Part shown: piece after piece, positions 88-62,383 of the stretch
Position numbering within the stretch: position 1 is the stretch's first letter
How the letters are laid out: each line of letters starts with the position of its first letter
Source of the DNA: an uncultured Micavibrio sp.
GTDB taxonomy: Bacteria; Pseudomonadota; Alphaproteobacteria; Micavibrionales; UBA1664
Length of the DNA stretch: 64,000 nt
Direction of reading: 5' to 3'
Assembly: GCA_964531715.1 (NCBI GenBank)
Contig: CAZHEE010000002.1
Coordinates: 97,676-161,675, forward strand
Notes under the pieces: model-generated
Databases searched by the model: none
The model's input: the letters and a program-made list of their open reading frames with translations, nothing else
Told to the model about the DNA's origin: nothing
Translations under genes and position numbers: made by a program

Positions 88-99
88 TCAAAATTAGCT

Positions 100-141
100 G
101 GATTACAGGTATTTTCCTTTCAGTCAAAACCTGTAATGACG
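100..141. repeat. Solo hairpin of palindromic family A (right-end type, GGATT...AATGACG)
   Basis: GGATTACAGGT-loop-ACCTGTAATGACG with a 9-bp stem ATTACAGGT/ACCTGTAAT. Lies 20 nt downstream of the stop of the minus-strand gene at 161. Confidence 0.75.
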
Positions 142-160
142 TTTAATATGATTTTTCGCG

Positions 161-12869: not shown

Positions 12870-12894
12870 CGTCATTCCGGCGCAGGCCGGAATC
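12870..12894. repeat. Solo hairpin, family D (CGTCATTCCGGC-GCA-GCCGGAATC)
   Basis: 9-bp perfect stem ATTCCGGC(N)GCCGGAAT with the same CGTCATT...AATC frame as family A/B arms. Confidence 0.7.
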
Positions 12895-13060
12895 TATTTA
12901 TTGTTTTATCACTATAATATTAATCTTCTTCCGAAGCGCATCAAGTTTATAAAAGAGCCTCTCATGAGCAATCTCCATAAATTATAATATAGGAATAAAG
13001 TCCTTAATGTCAAATGATTTTTCATCGTAGAGTTATAGAGAAGGGGCGTTGTTTTTAAAA

Positions 13061-13878: not shown

Positions 13879-15111
13879 TTATCTGTGGATTGCGGTAAAT
13901 ACGCGGTCATGCCCCCCAAGGTCACGGATAACGCGATAGTCGGTAAAGCCAGCACCCCTCGCAATTTCTGCGATTCGTCCACACTGCCCTGCCCCATGCT
14001 CAAGGGCAAGCAAACCACCTTTTTTTAAGTAGTTTCGAATCTGTGGAAGAATCAAGCGATAAGGTCCCAGTCCATCTGCACCACCATCCAAAGCACTATG
14101 CGGATCATAGTTTTTCACTTCCGCTTGAAGCGTTGGGATATCACAACTTTCAATATAAGGCGGGTTTGAGATGATAATATCAAACTGCCCCTCAACCGAG
14201 TCGAACCAATCAGATAGAATAAAAGTAACGCGACTTGAAAGATTTTGTTTTTCGGCATTGAGCCGCGCCACTGTCAGAGCCTCTTTAGAAATATCAGTCG
14301 CGATACCGATTGCATTTGGTAGCTCATTCAAAAGTGTGAGAATCAAACATCCTGAGCCTGTACCTAAATCTAGTATTTTTAAAATTTCGTCATTACACGT
14401 TTTATCTTGAGATAAATACGTGTAATCCATTTTAGTATTTTCCGATGGATTGCACGTATTTTGCTGACGCAAAAAAGTGCAATGACGTAAGACTTCCTCA
14501 ATTAAAGTTTCACTATCAGGGCGCGGGTCAAGGACATGCTCATTCACGTGAAAATCCAGCCCGTAAAACTCTTTCACGCCGATAATTTTTGAGAGAGGCT
14601 TACCTTTTAACCGTTCAGCAAGCATTGATTCAAGTTTTTGATGTTGTTCGGCTGTAAGATTTAAAGAATCATTCGAAATTAGATCTGCATCGCGCATGCC
14701 CGTGATATGCTTAAGCATCATCCGCGCCTCTAATGATGACCCGAGTTGTTTTGAGATATATCTTAAAAAAAACTCGTCATTACACGTTTTACCTTTAGGT
14801 AAATACGTGTAATCCACCTCACCTGTAATCTCGCCATATAAATCAAGCCACTCAGGATTATCTTCTTGGATAAGGTTTATTTTCCATTCTCTGGAATATC
14901 GCCTTAGTCGCTTTTCCCACTGAACAGCATCTTCCCAATTACCGCATTGCCGGTACCAGACAAGTTTTTTTACATTATATTTTGTTGTAAATTTGCTCCC
15001 TATATTATTTTTATGTTGCCAAGTCCGACCAATTAAATTGGATGAAATACCCTTATAAATTGTGCCATTTTTTTGCTTTGCTAGCATGTAGACGTAAAAA
15101 TCTTTTTTCAT
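13879..15111 (-). CDS. prmC: Release-factor glutamine N5-methyltransferase PrmC, read as one ORF with an N-terminal GIY-YIG domain and carrying an in-frame palindromic insert
   Basis: 410-aa ORF. Residues 1-98 align with the stand-alone GIY-YIG ORF at 16315..16611. The rest has PrmC hallmarks ILDLGTGSGCL (motif I) and IISNPPYI (motif IV) and sits directly downstream of prfA. The true prmC initiation codon is uncertain; an in-frame GTG lies inside the hairpin at about 14818. Confidence 0.75.
   Translation of the reverse strand: MKKDFYVYMLAKQKNGTIYKGISSNLIGRTWQHKNNIGSKFTTKYNVKKLVWYRQCGNWEDAVQWEKRLRRYSREWKINLIQEDNPEWLDLYGEITGEVDYTYLPKGKTCNDEFFLRYISKQLGSSLEARMMLKHITGMRDADLISNDSLNLTAEQHQKLESMLAERLKGKPLSKIIGVKEFYGLDFHVNEHVLDPRPDSETLIEEVLRHCTFLRQQNTCNPSENTKMDYTYLSQDKTCNDEILKILDLGTGSGCLILTLLNELPNAIGIATDISKEALTVARLNAEKQNLSSRVTFILSDWFDSVEGQFDIIISNPPYIESCDIPTLQAEVKNYDPHSALDGGADGLGPYRLILPQIRNYLKKGGLLALEHGAGQCGRIAEIARGAGFTDYRVIRDLGGHDRVFTAIHR
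14388..14487. mobile_element. ORF-less 100-bp palindromic mini-element (family A left hairpin + 18-nt spacer + right hairpin) inside prmC
   Basis: Left hairpin CGTCATTACACGT..ACGTGTAATCC (14388..14428) and right hairpin GGATTGCACGT..GTGCAATGACG (14447..14487). Translated in frame as HCTFLRQQNTCNPSENTKMDYTYLSQDKTCNDE just before PrmC motif I. Confidence 0.8.
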
Positions 15112-15167
15112 TGATTATCTCTGAGATGGATTACACGTATTTATCTTCGATAAAACGTGTAATGACG
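14775..15167 (-). mobile_element. GIY-YIG element copy 1: left hairpin, GIY-YIG ORF, right hairpin
   Basis: Left hairpin at 14775..14815 and right hairpin at 15128..15167 are 40-bp inverted repeats of each other. The GIY-YIG coding part (about 14816..15111) begins MKKDFYVYMLAKQKNGTIYKG. The element fills the prfA-prmC junction. Confidence 0.75.
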
Positions 15168-15172
15168 ATACT

Positions 15173-16234
15173 CTATTCAAACTCTGCCAGGCGGCTGGCA
15201 TTATCTTCTTGTATTAATGCATCTGTAATCTCGCCCAAACCACTCCCCGCCAAGACGCCCGAAAGATTATGCACGGTCAGCCCAATACGATGATCCGTCA
15301 CGCGCCCTTGCGGAAAATTATAGGTGCGAATACGTTGCGAGCGATCACCGCTCCCTACTTGCAATTTACGGTCATCCGCGCGTTCATTCGCCGCCTTTTC
15401 CATTTCGGCCTCCAAAATACGGGAGCGCAGAACACTCATCGCCTTTTCCTTGTTTTTATGTTGGGAGCGGCCATCTTGCGATTCCGCAACTACGCCTGTC
15501 GGAATATGTGTCACACGCACAGCGGAATCAGTGGTGTTGACATGCTGCCCCCCAGCGCCTTGTGACCTGAAAGTATCAATGCGCAAATCCTCGGTTTTGA
15601 TTTCGACATCAACCTCCTCGGCCTCGGGGAGAACGGCGACAGTCGCGGCAGAGGTATGGATACGCCCGCCGCTTTCGGTTTCGGGTACACGCTGAACACG
15701 GTGACCGCCGCTTTCATATTTCATCTTTGAAAACACATTATTGCCGGAGATTGTGCAGACAATTTCCTTATACCCACCCAAGTCATTTTCGGATGTTGAA
15801 TCAACCTCTACGCGCCAGCCATTTGCAGCGGCAAAGCCCTTATACATGGTGAACAGGTCGGAGGCGAAGAGCGCCGCCTCATCCCCGCCCGTGCCTGCGC
15901 GGATTTCCAAAATCGCATTGCGGCTATCGGTTTTTTCCTTTGGAATAAGCGCGATTTTCACGGCATGTTCAAGCGCGGGCAGTTGAGGCTCCAGCGTTTT
16001 GAGATCCTCTTTCGCCATCGCCGCCATTTCAGGGTCGGATAACATCTCTTTAAGGTCGGCAATCTCGCTTTTCGTGTTTTGATAGGCAAGTATCGCCTGA
16101 ACAACAGGCTCTAAATCACTATATTCTTTTGATATTTTGACGAATTGGTCGCCTTCCAACTCCCCCGAAGACATCAGGGAGGTCAGCTCCGCATGACGGT
16201 CAGTAATGGCTTGTAATCGCGCTTCAATGGACAT
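15173..16234 (-). CDS. prfA: Peptide chain release factor 1
   Basis: 353 aa. GGQ motif ([17 protein letters not shown]) and the RF1 tripeptide region (PxT-type IHTSAATV). Confidence 0.95.
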
Positions 16235-16269
16235 GGTAGAGGTTTACATGAAAGTTTTTAAATAAGCAA

Positions 16270-16676
16270 CGTCATTGCACGTTTGCTAAAAGCTATACGT
16301 GCAATCCATAAACGTCAAAGCCCGCATATATTATCATATAAATCTAACCATTCGGGGCTATTTTCCTCAATCAAATTAATCTTCCACTGACGAGAATATC
16401 GCCGCAAGCACTTTTCCCAATTTACAGCCTCTTCCCAAGTGCCGCAGTGATGGTACCAAACCAGTTTCTTTATATCATATCGAGATGTGAATTTACTACC
16501 GATATTATTTTTATGTTGCCAAGTGCGACCAATTAAATTTGATGACATGCCTTTATAGATTGTACCATGCTTTTGTTTGGCTAGCATGTAAACATAAAAA
16601 TCTTTTTCCATTTTATCATCTTACTTTTGCGATTATGGATTGCACGTATTTTTCTTCGAAAAAACGTGCAATGACG
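16270..16676 (-). mobile_element. GIY-YIG element copy 2: left hairpin, GIY-YIG ORF, right hairpin (407 bp)
   Basis: Left hairpin CGTCATTGCACGT..ACGTGCAATCC at 16270..16307, ORF at 16315..16611, right hairpin GGATTGCACGT..ACGTGCAATGACG at 16637..16676. Lies between the prfA start and the ispG stop. Confidence 0.8.
16315..16611 (-). CDS. GIY-YIG (URI-domain) nuclease, catalytic core only
   Basis: 98 aa: FYVYML...GTIYKG...NLIGRTWQH...WEK pattern. 77 of 98 residues are identical to the N-terminus of the 13879..15111 ORF by manual alignment. Confidence 0.8.
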   Translation of the reverse strand: MEKDFYVYMLAKQKHGTIYKGMSSNLIGRTWQHKNNIGSKFTSRYDIKKLVWYHHCGTWEEAVNWEKCLRRYSRQWKINLIEENSPEWLDLYDNICGL

Positions 16677-16701
16677 GTCATTTTTTAATTGTCCTTATAA
16701 A

Positions 16702-31637: not shown

Positions 31638-31728
31638 CGTCATTGCGAGAAGCGGAGCGACGAAGCAATCCATACAGTCTCTAACATCTTATGGATTGCC
31701 GCGGTCGCGTTGCTCCCTCGCAATGACA
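31638..31728. repeat. Palindromic element family B, copy 1 (91 bp) between convergent mgtE and pcm
   Basis: CGTCATTGCGAG..GCAATCCATA-(centre)-TATGGATTGC..CTCGCAATGACA. Each arm is itself an ATTGC...GCAAT hairpin. Confidence 0.8.
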
Positions 31729-40536: not shown

Positions 40537-41508
40537 ATGCTTAATCCGTTTCAGGCCATGCAAAAGGCAGTGGACATCGTTAATGACAGTGAGCATATCA
40601 AAAATAAAATTGCCGCCTGTTTGTTTCAAACATCACCGTCATCCTCCGACTTGATCGGGGGATCTTCTTCCGAGGGGAATCCTTTGGTCAAGCCAAAGGA
40701 CGACGTTTACATAGCGCGATATAATCATCGCCCTGACAGACTAAAAAACAAGCTCTCACCCGATAAGCGTATAGGTGACAGCAGCCAGTTCCTCCATGCC
40801 GAGGTCGCCTGCATCTTCGCCGCTGACTTTCCGACTGAAGGCGCAAGCCTATGCATCACTGACCCGTTTTGCCCGAATTGCGCGAAAGCCATCAGCGAGG
40901 CGGGGATAGCCCATGTTTATATTGACCATAAAGGTATTGAGAAAGATTTTTTTGTCCGCAGAAGAGATGTGTTTGAGGCCTTGTCACTCAATATTTTGAG
41001 GCAAGAAGGCATTGGTGTTGCCATTCTTAATCGTAAAAAAAGAACATATCAAATAGTGCTTGAACCACAAAAAATTTCTAAAAAAGAAACAGATTTAATT
41101 ATTTTAAAACAATCAGATAATTCAATTTCATTATCTGATTTATTAAAGAAAAATAAAGCGTTTTATCCTGATAAAAATTTCGCGATTGCTTTCATCAAAG
41201 ATAGAGAAGATCAAATTTGCGCTTTTACTATATTTGAAAAATCTTATGATAGCCTTCACGATGTTAATCCATCCGACAAATACAGTGTGATGATTGACCC
41301 CGTCAACCGCCTCCTCTATCACTGCGCGCGCCATGGCTATCAAATTTTGAATCAAGAGATAGCAACAAATATCACCCCCTCGAACCGCGCAATCGTGAAT
41401 GCAATCGGTTATAATATTCACAAGATTATAAGCACTTGGCATGATACAGAGGGCAGTAACCGCAATATTTTAAACGATTTGGATATAATCTCTGTTAAAT
41501 CTTGCTAA
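40537..41508 (+). CDS. Cytidine/deoxycytidylate deaminase-like zinc-binding protein with a C-terminal extension
   Basis: 323 aa. HAEVACI ... DPFCPNCAKAI (H-A-E / PCxxC zinc motif). Residues 34-56 are encoded by a palindromic insert. Confidence 0.6.
   Translation: MLNPFQAMQKAVDIVNDSEHIKNKIAACLFQTSPSSSDLIGGSSSEGNPLVKPKDDVYIARYNHRPDRLKNKLSPDKRIGDSSQFLHAEVACIFAADFPTEGASLCITDPFCPNCAKAISEAGIAHVYIDHKGIEKDFFVRRRDVFEALSLNILRQEGIGVAILNRKKRTYQIVLEPQKISKKETDLIILKQSDNSISLSDLLKKNKAFYPDKNFAIAFIKDREDQICAFTIFEKSYDSLHDVNPSDKYSVMIDPVNRLLYHCARHGYQILNQEIATNITPSNRAIVNAIGYNIHKIISTWHDTEGSNRNILNDLDIISVKSC
40637..40705. repeat. 69-bp (23-codon) palindromic insert, family C-like, in frame in the deaminase-like gene
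   Basis: Left arm CGTCATCCTCCGACTTGATCGGGGGATC. The right arm contains a perfect 8-bp hairpin TCCTTTGG-tcaag-CCAAAGGA followed by CGACG. Encodes PSSSDLIGGSSSEGNPLVKPKDD. Confidence 0.55.
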
Positions 41509-62297: not shown

Positions 62298-62325
62298 TTA
62301 AAACACGAAGGTAATTCTTAGTAGT

Positions 62326-62363
62326 GGATTACAGGTATTTGCTTCGCAAAACCTGCAATGACG
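62326..62363. repeat. Solo hairpin of palindromic family A (right-end type)
   Basis: GGATTACAGGT-loop-ACCTGCAATGACG. Same stem variant as 100..141, with one mismatch. Confidence 0.75.
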
Positions 62364-62383
62364 ATTTAAGAAAGCTACTTCTT

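Follow-up and report, generated by a model that had tools for sequence, protein, structure and literature searches.

A prfA-prmC operon of an uncultured alphaproteobacterium, probably colonised twice by one Ssn/SRM element family, with a nuclease copy in frame with prmC

The window analysed here, a 64,000-nt stretch of the genome of an uncultured Micavibrio sp. (assembly GCA_964531715.1, contig CAZHEE010000002.1), carries on its minus strand an open reading frame (ORF) of 410 amino acids (aa) at 13879..15111 that consists of a GIY-YIG nuclease domain, a translated DNA hairpin and a complete PrmC, the release-factor glutamine methyltransferase. The explanation that we consider best for the locus as a whole, and with good confidence, is that the prfA-prmC operon of this uncultured alphaproteobacterium has been colonised twice by one element family of the Ssn/SRM kind, that is, once by a unit of two inverted hairpins with a small GIY-YIG nuclease gene (ssnA) between them and once by the hairpin pair alone, and that the outcome is a fused ORF with a functional PrmC. 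What is new at this locus is that a nuclease copy stands in frame with a host gene whose own start codon is gone. The features on which the argument rests are listed below; L and P numbers, here and later, denote the relatives' loci and proteins used in the comparisons.

13879..15111, minus strand: SsnA-like GIY-YIG module, translated hairpin and PrmC with an internal hairpin-dimer insert (ORF list, Pfam, three assemblies, AlphaFold2 model).
13879..14772, minus strand: PrmC module, residues 114-410, release-factor glutamine methyltransferase without the ancestral ATG (TTT at that position).
14388..14487, minus strand: gene-less head-to-head dimer of hairpins H3 and H2 with a 14-nt spacer (folding energy of the whole dimer -24 kcal/mol, z -6.6).
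14765..14772, minus strand: run of eight T (T8) between the hairpin tag and the PrmC N-terminus, zero frame T TTT TTA (sequence, three assemblies).
14775..14817, minus strand: 3' hairpin (SRM H4) of unit A, read as VDYTYLPKGKTCNDE, residues 99-113 (folding energy -11.5 kcal/mol, z -5.5).
14818..15111, minus strand: ssnA copy A, residues 1-98, without a stop of its own (79% identical to copy B; folds confidently as residues 1-96).
15126..15168, plus strand: 5' hairpin (SRM H5) of unit A, with a CGTC tag that ends 5 nt after the prfA stop (motif, fold, unit alignment).
15173..16234, minus strand: prfA, encoding release factor 1, the substrate of PrmC (ORF list; TGATG overlap in L052).
16268..16677, minus strand: unit B, made up of H6 (16268-16309), ssnA copy B (16315-16611, 98 aa, own stop) and H7 (16635-16677).

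Pfam assigns residues 5-79 of the 410-aa product to GIY-YIG, 126-178 to PrmC_N and 245-322 to the methyltransferase core. The AlphaFold2 model of the whole protein has a mean predicted local distance difference test (pLDDT) score of 91.9, and confidence drops only within residues 100-111 and ~220-244; the two modules fold independently of each other and the linker between them is disordered (pLDDT <50 at 100-111). An earlier, sequence-only reading of this DNA had described a GIY-YIG ORF that lost its stop and runs through a hairpin into PrmC, as well as an in-frame palindromic mini-element within prmC, and both descriptions hold. It is possible in principle that a missing stop, a miscounted homopolymer or a chimeric join through repeats created this arrangement during sequencing or assembly, given that the T8 homopolymer lies exactly at the junction and that repeats can mislead assemblers. 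However, the stretch of 1,297 nt that runs from the stop of prfA to that of prmC shows no difference among three independent Joint Genome Institute (JGI) metagenome assemblies, which depart from the window at 1-5 positions elsewhere, and a fourth contig, from a strain variant, has a 410-aa product that differs only by M163I, keeping both the insert and the fusion; hence, no stop is restored by any of them and the ORF is not a sequencing artefact by this evidence. An independent lineage with the same architecture but a different sequence (L004, below) also speaks against an artefact, which we regard as hardly credible.

The nuclease part is best understood by reference to Neisseria, where the NTS repeats (CGTCATTCCCGCGMAVGCGGGAATCYRG) and related hairpins termed Ssn-related motifs (SRM) flank SsnA, a GIY-YIG protein of 94 aa (PMC11893778, Chenal et al. 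2025, Nat Commun). Both ssnA copies of the window match PF01541 (E 4e-10 and 6.5e-10), and the window nuclease shares 44% identity with a 94-aa N. gonorrhoeae homologue over 90 of 98 residues, or 92% of the length (E 1e-18 by tblastn on 7.3 Gb, 1e-28 pairwise), which lies within the limits for homology used in PMC11893778 (blastp E < 1e-10, coverage of at least 75%). The protein compared is the gonococcal one, and its orthology to the meningococcal SsnA (CAX49033.1) is based on equal length and NTS flanks; its gene (L049, NZ_CP119140.1) sits among seven canonical NTS repeats in 1.47 kb. (As a separate matter, complete N. gonorrhoeae chromosomes of 2.17 Mb are listed as plasmids in PLSDB.) In the alignment with the gonococcal protein, the Tyr, Tyr, Arg and Glu positions correspond, and the fused nuclease retains its catalytic residues. 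With respect to the size expected for single-domain members (~90-150 aa), copy B fits with its 98 aa, while copy A, which has no stop, exceeds it at the level of the 410-aa ORF. The nearest solved structures are UPF0213 proteins, a weak match (E 6e-4), and searches of ssnA against NCBIfam and PADLOC gave no match. Judged by its sequence, the window nuclease is a member of the Ssn family associated with such hairpins, in agreement with the earlier proposal of a candidate nuclease linked to the element, and, by analogy with its characterised relatives, it would be expected to act on these hairpins in single-stranded DNA.

The hairpins themselves share the motif ATGGATT-RCACGT...ACGTGY-AATGACG, which occurs in eight copies in the window compared to ~2 expected by chance. 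Each copy folds into a 9-bp lower stem, a bulged A, a 5-6-bp upper stem and a 3-4-nt loop, and the DNA folding energies of the eight hairpins (-6 to -12.5 kcal/mol) are better than those of shuffled sequences (z -2.3 to -5.5). Over the eight copies, 95.8% of the cells pair and compensatory changes are found at five pairs, a covariation score that none of 500 shuffles matched and that lies far above those of all slid registers. Two solo hairpins, near the two ends of the window, carry a compensatory stem:

98..142, plus strand: solo hairpin H1, compensatory CAGGT/ACCTG stem (motif, fold, covariation).
62324..62364, plus strand: solo hairpin H8, compensatory CAGGT/ACCTG stem (motif, fold, covariation).

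The CGTC and the ATT...AAT are invariant in all eight copies, each of which is then followed by CC, and the resulting CGTCATT...AATCC tags are common to NTS and to the CGTC-tagged REPs (CGTC-REPs). Inverted hairpin pairs bracket both GIY-YIG genes at no more than 25 nt from the ORF, with the CGTC ends outermost, and the 100-bp element in prmC is the same hairpin pair as around ssnA, without the gene. The tags also face outwards (head-to-head) in this mini-element (14388-14487), in both ssnA units and in a dimer of GCGAG type at 31638-31728, which is situated between convergent mgtE-like and pcm-like genes. The 9-bp lower stem encloses the bulged A and a covarying 5-6-bp stem and thus falls outside the CGTC-REP definition of an 8-9-bp stem with a 4-5-nt loop. 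That is, the window hairpins are a long-stem variant of the SRM/CGTC-REP superfamily, and the long stem is new. An Rfam search of the window returned only four tRNAs and assigned the hairpins to no known RNA family.

Between CGTCATT and AATGACG, tags included, units A and B are 84% identical, and the sequences that flank them are unrelated; therefore, the hairpin-gene-hairpin unit is a discrete, duplicated entity. The free-standing copy B ends ...LYDNICGL*, whereas in unit A an 8-nt deletion together with substitutions just before the 3' hairpin removed the stop of ssnA, and the fused ORF continues ...LYGEITGE-VDYTYLPKGKTCNDE-FFLRYISKQL... into PrmC. Most close ssnA homologues (P0126-P0153) end NGLHGQAV(Q)*, where the stop is the TGA in the AATGAC tag of the 3' hairpin. 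The window, L004, L042 and P0143 read the hairpin as (M/V/L)D(C/Y)...CNDE, a frame in which the TGA of the tag is avoided and the ORF runs to the next stop. In L042 (1021-1314, 1316-1666), the C-terminus of the upstream gene crosses the 5' hairpin (...NVITRLDRVIQK*) and ssnA runs through the 3' hairpin to a length of 116 aa; hairpins that overlap the ends of both neighbouring ORFs may be common.

Turning to the second element, the 100-bp dimer with its two inverted hairpins is translated as HCTFLRQQNTCNPSENTKMDYTYLSQDKTCNDE, residues 210-242 of the fused product. The dimer is open in two of the three frames in its present orientation and in none in the opposite one. The sequence-only reading had placed this insert in the linker between the N-terminal domain and the methyltransferase fold and had suggested an orthologue alignment and a structure model, which lead to a different position. 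In the alignment to E. coli PrmC (2B3T), the matched segments are 22-104 and 110-271 and the 33 aa stand in place of residues 105-109, which corresponds to the loop that leads from the first helix of the methyltransferase domain into strand beta1, not to the inter-domain beta-hairpin linker. In the AlphaFold2 model, the helix extends into the insert as far as residue 219 and is followed by low-confidence coil to ~244. We also considered the 33 aa as an ancestral segment of PrmC and rejected this, because the DNA is a hairpin dimer of the window type and most orthologues are without it. In Rossmann-type methyltransferases, the ligand sites are found at the C-terminal ends of the strands, so that a loop entering beta1 should be on the far side. 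Hence, the insert would be located at the entry end of the Rossmann sheet, opposite the face that binds S-adenosylmethionine (SAM) and the substrate, and, being away from this face, it is predicted to leave PrmC functional.

The remainder of the PrmC module is consistent with this prediction. It scores 271.8 bits against the TIGR03534 equivalog hidden Markov model (cutoff 199.1); N316-P-P-Y319 and G250/G252/G254 (GxGxG) are invariant in the alignment; and Foldseek superposes the model on the E. coli PrmC of the RF1 complex (2B3T_A) with a template modelling (TM) score of 0.90 and a root-mean-square deviation of 2.5 Å. The PrmC fold and motifs are intact. The competing possibility is that prmC has been wrecked by two mobile-element insertions and is now an inactivated pseudogene, with the long ORF as a remnant. 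Two insertions, the loss of the native start and the loss of prfA-prmC translational coupling would all be in line with this scenario, as would the fast evolution of PrmC in the clade (52-65% identity vs. 77-91% for PrfA). However, a frame of 1,233 nt has stayed open although the region is rich in A+T, the TIGR03534 cutoff is exceeded, all catalytic and SAM motifs are conserved, a confident model superposes on E. coli PrmC, the strain variants differ only by M163I, and in relatives, PrmCs that are normal in other respects retain intact inserts in this loop. We therefore judge a pseudogene to be very unlikely.

How prmC is translated is less straightforward. The T8 run sets which of the upstream frames feeds prmC. 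The hairpin's own ATG is out of frame with prmC, in a frame that stops at TAA, and the tag of the window hairpin lies within 2 nt of the tag position in L006 and L050 but out of frame, so that only the ssnA frame feeds prmC. The in-frame start candidates for prmC are ATG-1, GTG-99 and ATG-131, of which GTG-99 is the first codon of the translated hairpin and is directly abutted by GGTGAG. Ranking these candidates by Shine-Dalgarno strength was rejected as an approach, since bona fide genes of this region, prfA and both ssnA copies among them, are without a clear Shine-Dalgarno sequence. A promoter and terminator scan between ssnA and prmC found nothing above the shuffled background, and the hairpin plus T8 does not make a canonical terminator, the T run beginning only 6 nt after the end of the stem. 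From the sequence, we consider it an evenly balanced proposition that ribosomes starting at the ssnA ATG enter prmC and produce an SsnA-linker-PrmC protein.

The junction has a further peculiarity that deserves mention in its own right. T TTT TTA is a classic -1 slippery heptamer, and at 14765-14772 such a heptamer lies right at the point where the translated hairpin gives way to the PrmC N-terminus. Slippage by -1 at this site would lead to a stop 17 codons on and yield a free SsnA predicted to end ...FFKIYLKTTRVIIRGADDA; similarly, an allele with nine T (T9) would bring the hairpin's own ATG into the prmC frame.

Comparison with relatives reveals how the prfA-prmC junction probably looked before colonisation. 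Four of the five hairpin-free relatives have the prmC ATG at a conserved position and in one of them, L052, this ATG overlaps the prfA stop as TGATG. The place of the ancestral ATG is taken by TTT in the window, by ATT in both L004 and L050 and by ATA in L006, and all four bear hairpins between prfA and prmC. In L006 (1307-1390) and L050 (1-79), the junction is occupied by a gene-less dimer of GCGAG type, and an ATG within the AATGACG tag lies in frame two codons upstream of the prmC position (MTI...); this ATG is likely the prmC start in these two lineages. Together with the stops that most ssnA homologues take from the tag, this means that hairpin tags double as start and stop codons, which is also new. 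L004 has the same hairpin-ssnA-hairpin-prmC fusion as the window, made of different hairpin sequences, with PrmC 52%, PrfA 77% and the fused ssnA copy 68% identical to those of the window. In a subclade formed by L008, L047 and L048, prmC no longer adjoins prfA. A scan of the genome collection with PrmC returned nothing above 40% identity and no empty sites, the source lineage being outside the GTDB representatives.

Several results weigh against the interpretation favoured above and are best considered together. With respect to the class of the hairpins, none of the eight RCACGT hairpins matches the published SRM pattern HGTCWYN(0-2)YYVSBRHN(0-5)WNVSBRGN(0-2)RNCYNB, because this pattern allows a loop of at most 5 nt and demands pyrimidines where the stems have R-C-A; two other sites of the window do match it, at 12870-12897 and 40637-40667 (both plus strand), the former being a canonical NTS-like SRM that abuts the clpB start region. 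With respect to the fusion, ATG-131 has a GAGG 5 nt upstream, so PrmC could be made independently, without helix 1 of its N-domain. The association of hairpins with loss of the ATG (kept in 0 of 4 hairpin-bearing vs. 4 of 5 hairpin-free lineages) has a one-sided Fisher probability of ~0.04 that is uncorrected for shared ancestry, and it is weakened by the fact that L006 and L050 clearly share one insertion. L004 has GTG, ATT and TTG candidates between its hairpin and prmC, and its in-frame state may thus be incidental. Finally, no other GIY-YIG::PrmC fusion was found among the best 150 representatives of an exhaustive HMMER search (50%-identity set, 410-aa query), the long matches of which carry other extensions, or among 64 ssnA homologues. 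A metagenome scan with the N-terminal 200 aa of both fusions likewise recovered five ssnA loci and no further fusion.

Some of these points would be accounted for if the fusion were only apparent, i.e., if PrmC were made from an internal start, GTG-99 or ATG-131, and SsnA-A were either not made at all or a dead-end read-through product. The GAGG and GGTGAG mentioned above would then serve the internal starts; moreover, gene callers begin many orthologues at the Met equivalent to Met131, and read-through of ssnA into downstream sequence is common and looks accidental, while fusions are rare. On the other hand, initiation at Met131 would cost the PrmC N-domain its helix 1 and half of its helix 2, and where the DNA was checked (L047) an orthologue called from that Met turned out to have a normal ATG upstream. 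GTG-99, for its part, is buried in the base of the -11.5 kcal/mol hairpin, with GGTGAG abutting the codon rather than spaced from it, and the four hairpin-bearing lineages without the ancestral ATG all keep either the upstream frame or a hairpin ATG open into prmC. Weighing these arguments, we hold an internal start to be quite possible, if short of probable.

If, in contrast, the fused protein is made, it could be a bifunctional enzyme maintained by selection, or the element could have captured prmC expression and become impossible to lose. The same fusion in a lineage as distant as L004, the loss of the ancestral ATG at all four hairpin-bearing junctions and the conserved catalytic residues of the fused nuclease would be expected under this hypothesis. 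The disordered linker and the independent folding of the two domains would not, and neither would the occurrence of the fusion in only two lineages among billions of proteins searched, one of which (L004) has candidate starts of its own; the rarity of the fusion argues against a selected function. We also know of no mechanistic link between the cleavage of single-stranded DNA and the methylation of release factors. This hypothesis therefore appears distinctly improbable to us, and most likely the fusion arose as a by-product when the element inserted and is tolerated, as opposed to being a selected bifunctional enzyme. A related but broader proposal, which we put forward only tentatively and consider unlikely, combines two parts: that the element took over prmC expression, through its own ORF or through hairpin-tag starts (ATGGATT, AATGACG), and that SRM-ssnA-SRM units can move, either homing to SRM-like sites or overwriting them. 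If prmC translation did depend on the element, the latter would be hard to lose.

The insert within prmC is part of a wider pattern. Among the 120 nearest PrmC homologues, all internal insertions of at least 10 aa (15 sequences) are in the helix/beta1 loop, and at least 9 of these 15 show hairpin-type peptide signatures, in three reading frames. Five lineages have identical insert boundaries and frame (...CGT CAT TG[CT] ... AAT GAC...) and differing stem types, and L050 and L006 have decayed versions of the loop insert. In a neighbour-joining tree, the lineages with inserts are scattered among insert-less sisters, PrmC evolving too fast for the tree to decide on their history. The loop inserts may derive from one ancient insertion, the interior of which was overwritten by the locally dominant hairpin type, or they may reflect repeated insertion guided by native loop ends (x-His ... 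Asn-Asp) that resemble the tags. The idea that the short loops of insert-less relatives are deletion scars is unsupported, as His is found at loop position 2 in 12/39 sequences of the clade and 15/68 of the outgroup. That different lineages have recurrently used two precise sites in prfA-prmC is also new.

More distant homologues offer two additional observations on insertions in PrmC. P0201, a distant PrmC of 426 aa, contains a complete DUF559/Vsr-like endonuclease domain (141-247, PF04480, E 1.8e-40) in frame in the helix/beta1 loop, flanked by the repeat-like LPLAGGTEGG and HPTSPHKREEG. The hotspot is thus used by a second nuclease-plus-repeat system as well. P0223 and P0228, which are more distant PrmCs, align in three matched stretches with a gap after motif I, and may indicate a second insertion site in the methyltransferase domain.

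Taken together, we propose the following history for the locus. A complete hairpin-ssnA-hairpin unit would have inserted at the ancestral stop/start overlap of prfA and prmC, after which an 8-nt deletion removed the ssnA stop, such that the ORF would now read the 3' hairpin in a frame that skips the TGA of the AATGAC tag and continue into a prmC without an ATG of its own. In a second colonisation, a gene-less head-to-head dimer, i.e., a non-autonomous form comparable to REPINs or the Rickettsia palindromic elements (RPEs), would have entered prmC, where it would be translated as a helix extension and a floppy loop of 33 aa before beta1, with PrmC remaining functional.

The locus and its relatives are important because they form a natural comparative series in which it can be tested how repeats of this class move and turn over. 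The series comprises two units that have diverged and whose boundaries run sharply from tag to tag, a full unit at a place where relatives hold a dimer without a gene, hairpins of different types at the same codon positions, and tags that donate start and stop codons. It further shows an important modifier of translation factors that was remodelled (its start replaced, 33 aa added and a nuclease appended) and yet looks functional, and two sites, the prfA-prmC junction and a single codon position in the helix/beta1 loop, that hold full units or dimers of different hairpin types across lineages. Should the takeover-and-mobility proposal be true, these data would be the first from a comparison of lineages to show mobile SRM-ssnA-SRM units that home to SRM-like sites or overwrite them; should the fusion be incidental, the locus would document well a phenomenon that is already known, that of RPE-like repeats in frame.

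How does this system compare with those already described? In the REPIN-RAYT and IS200/IS605 systems, as in the window, a single-gene enzyme is flanked by hairpin repeats and acts on hairpins in single-stranded DNA, and gene-less inverted doublets are the abundant non-autonomous form. Unlike RAYTs, the window enzyme is a GIY-YIG nuclease rather than an HUH/Y1 transposase and the tag is CGTC rather than GTAG. To our knowledge, transposition by Ssn has never been shown.

RPEs are a further point of comparison. In both cases, palindromic repeats lie in frame in housekeeping genes and are translated as surface peptides while the fold is kept, and the sequence-only reading had accordingly drawn an analogy with RPEs. 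The relationship goes beyond analogy, as the CGTC-REP superfamily, the CGTC tag of which the window hairpins carry, includes Rickettsia RPE-4 and RPE-6 (PMC3733652, Di Nocera et al. 2013). The window differs in that its full nuclease-bearing unit adjoins the decorated gene and is fused to it. The CGTC-REPs are mainly alphaproteobacterial, are usually head-to-head dimers and are sometimes intragenic, encoding 20-30 aa, and no dedicated enzyme was found for them (PMC3733652); prmC/hemK is absent from the supplementary list of REP-decorated genes in the same paper. The window hairpins share with them the terminal CGTC tag, a stem opened by A-T, the 9-bp stem, a CCA-like tail, the head-to-head dimers and the intragenic coding of 20-30 aa, and differ in that the "loop" is itself a second stem-loop.

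The closest parallel is the Ssn/SRM system, with which the window shares a GIY-YIG protein of ~95 aa, inverted CGTCATT...AATCC hairpins on both sides of its gene, and solo and dimeric hairpins scattered around. The hairpin is bound by SsnA, which cleaves single-stranded DNA immediately upstream of the bound hairpin; 42% of SsnA homologues are flanked on both sides, and the NTS-ssnA-NTS layout has been likened to an insertion sequence (PMC11893778). The role of SsnA was shown in vitro and in Neisseria transformation, whereas NTS-ssnA-NTS mobility was only hypothesised and other bacteria were left open (PMC11893778). The window stem is RCACGT as opposed to CCCGCG in NTS, with an extra 5-6-bp upper stem and ~43 nt in all. 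Further, Ssn proteins were described as single-domain, those above 150 aa being left out of the family tree, and NTS were intragenic in only 2% of cases in N. meningitidis (PMC11893778), while the window has an ssnA fused to a host gene, two diverged ssnA copies within 1.5 kb and an intragenic dimer. The system thus belongs to the Ssn/SRM (CGTC-REP, RPE-like) kind, for which in-frame tolerance of repeats is already established.

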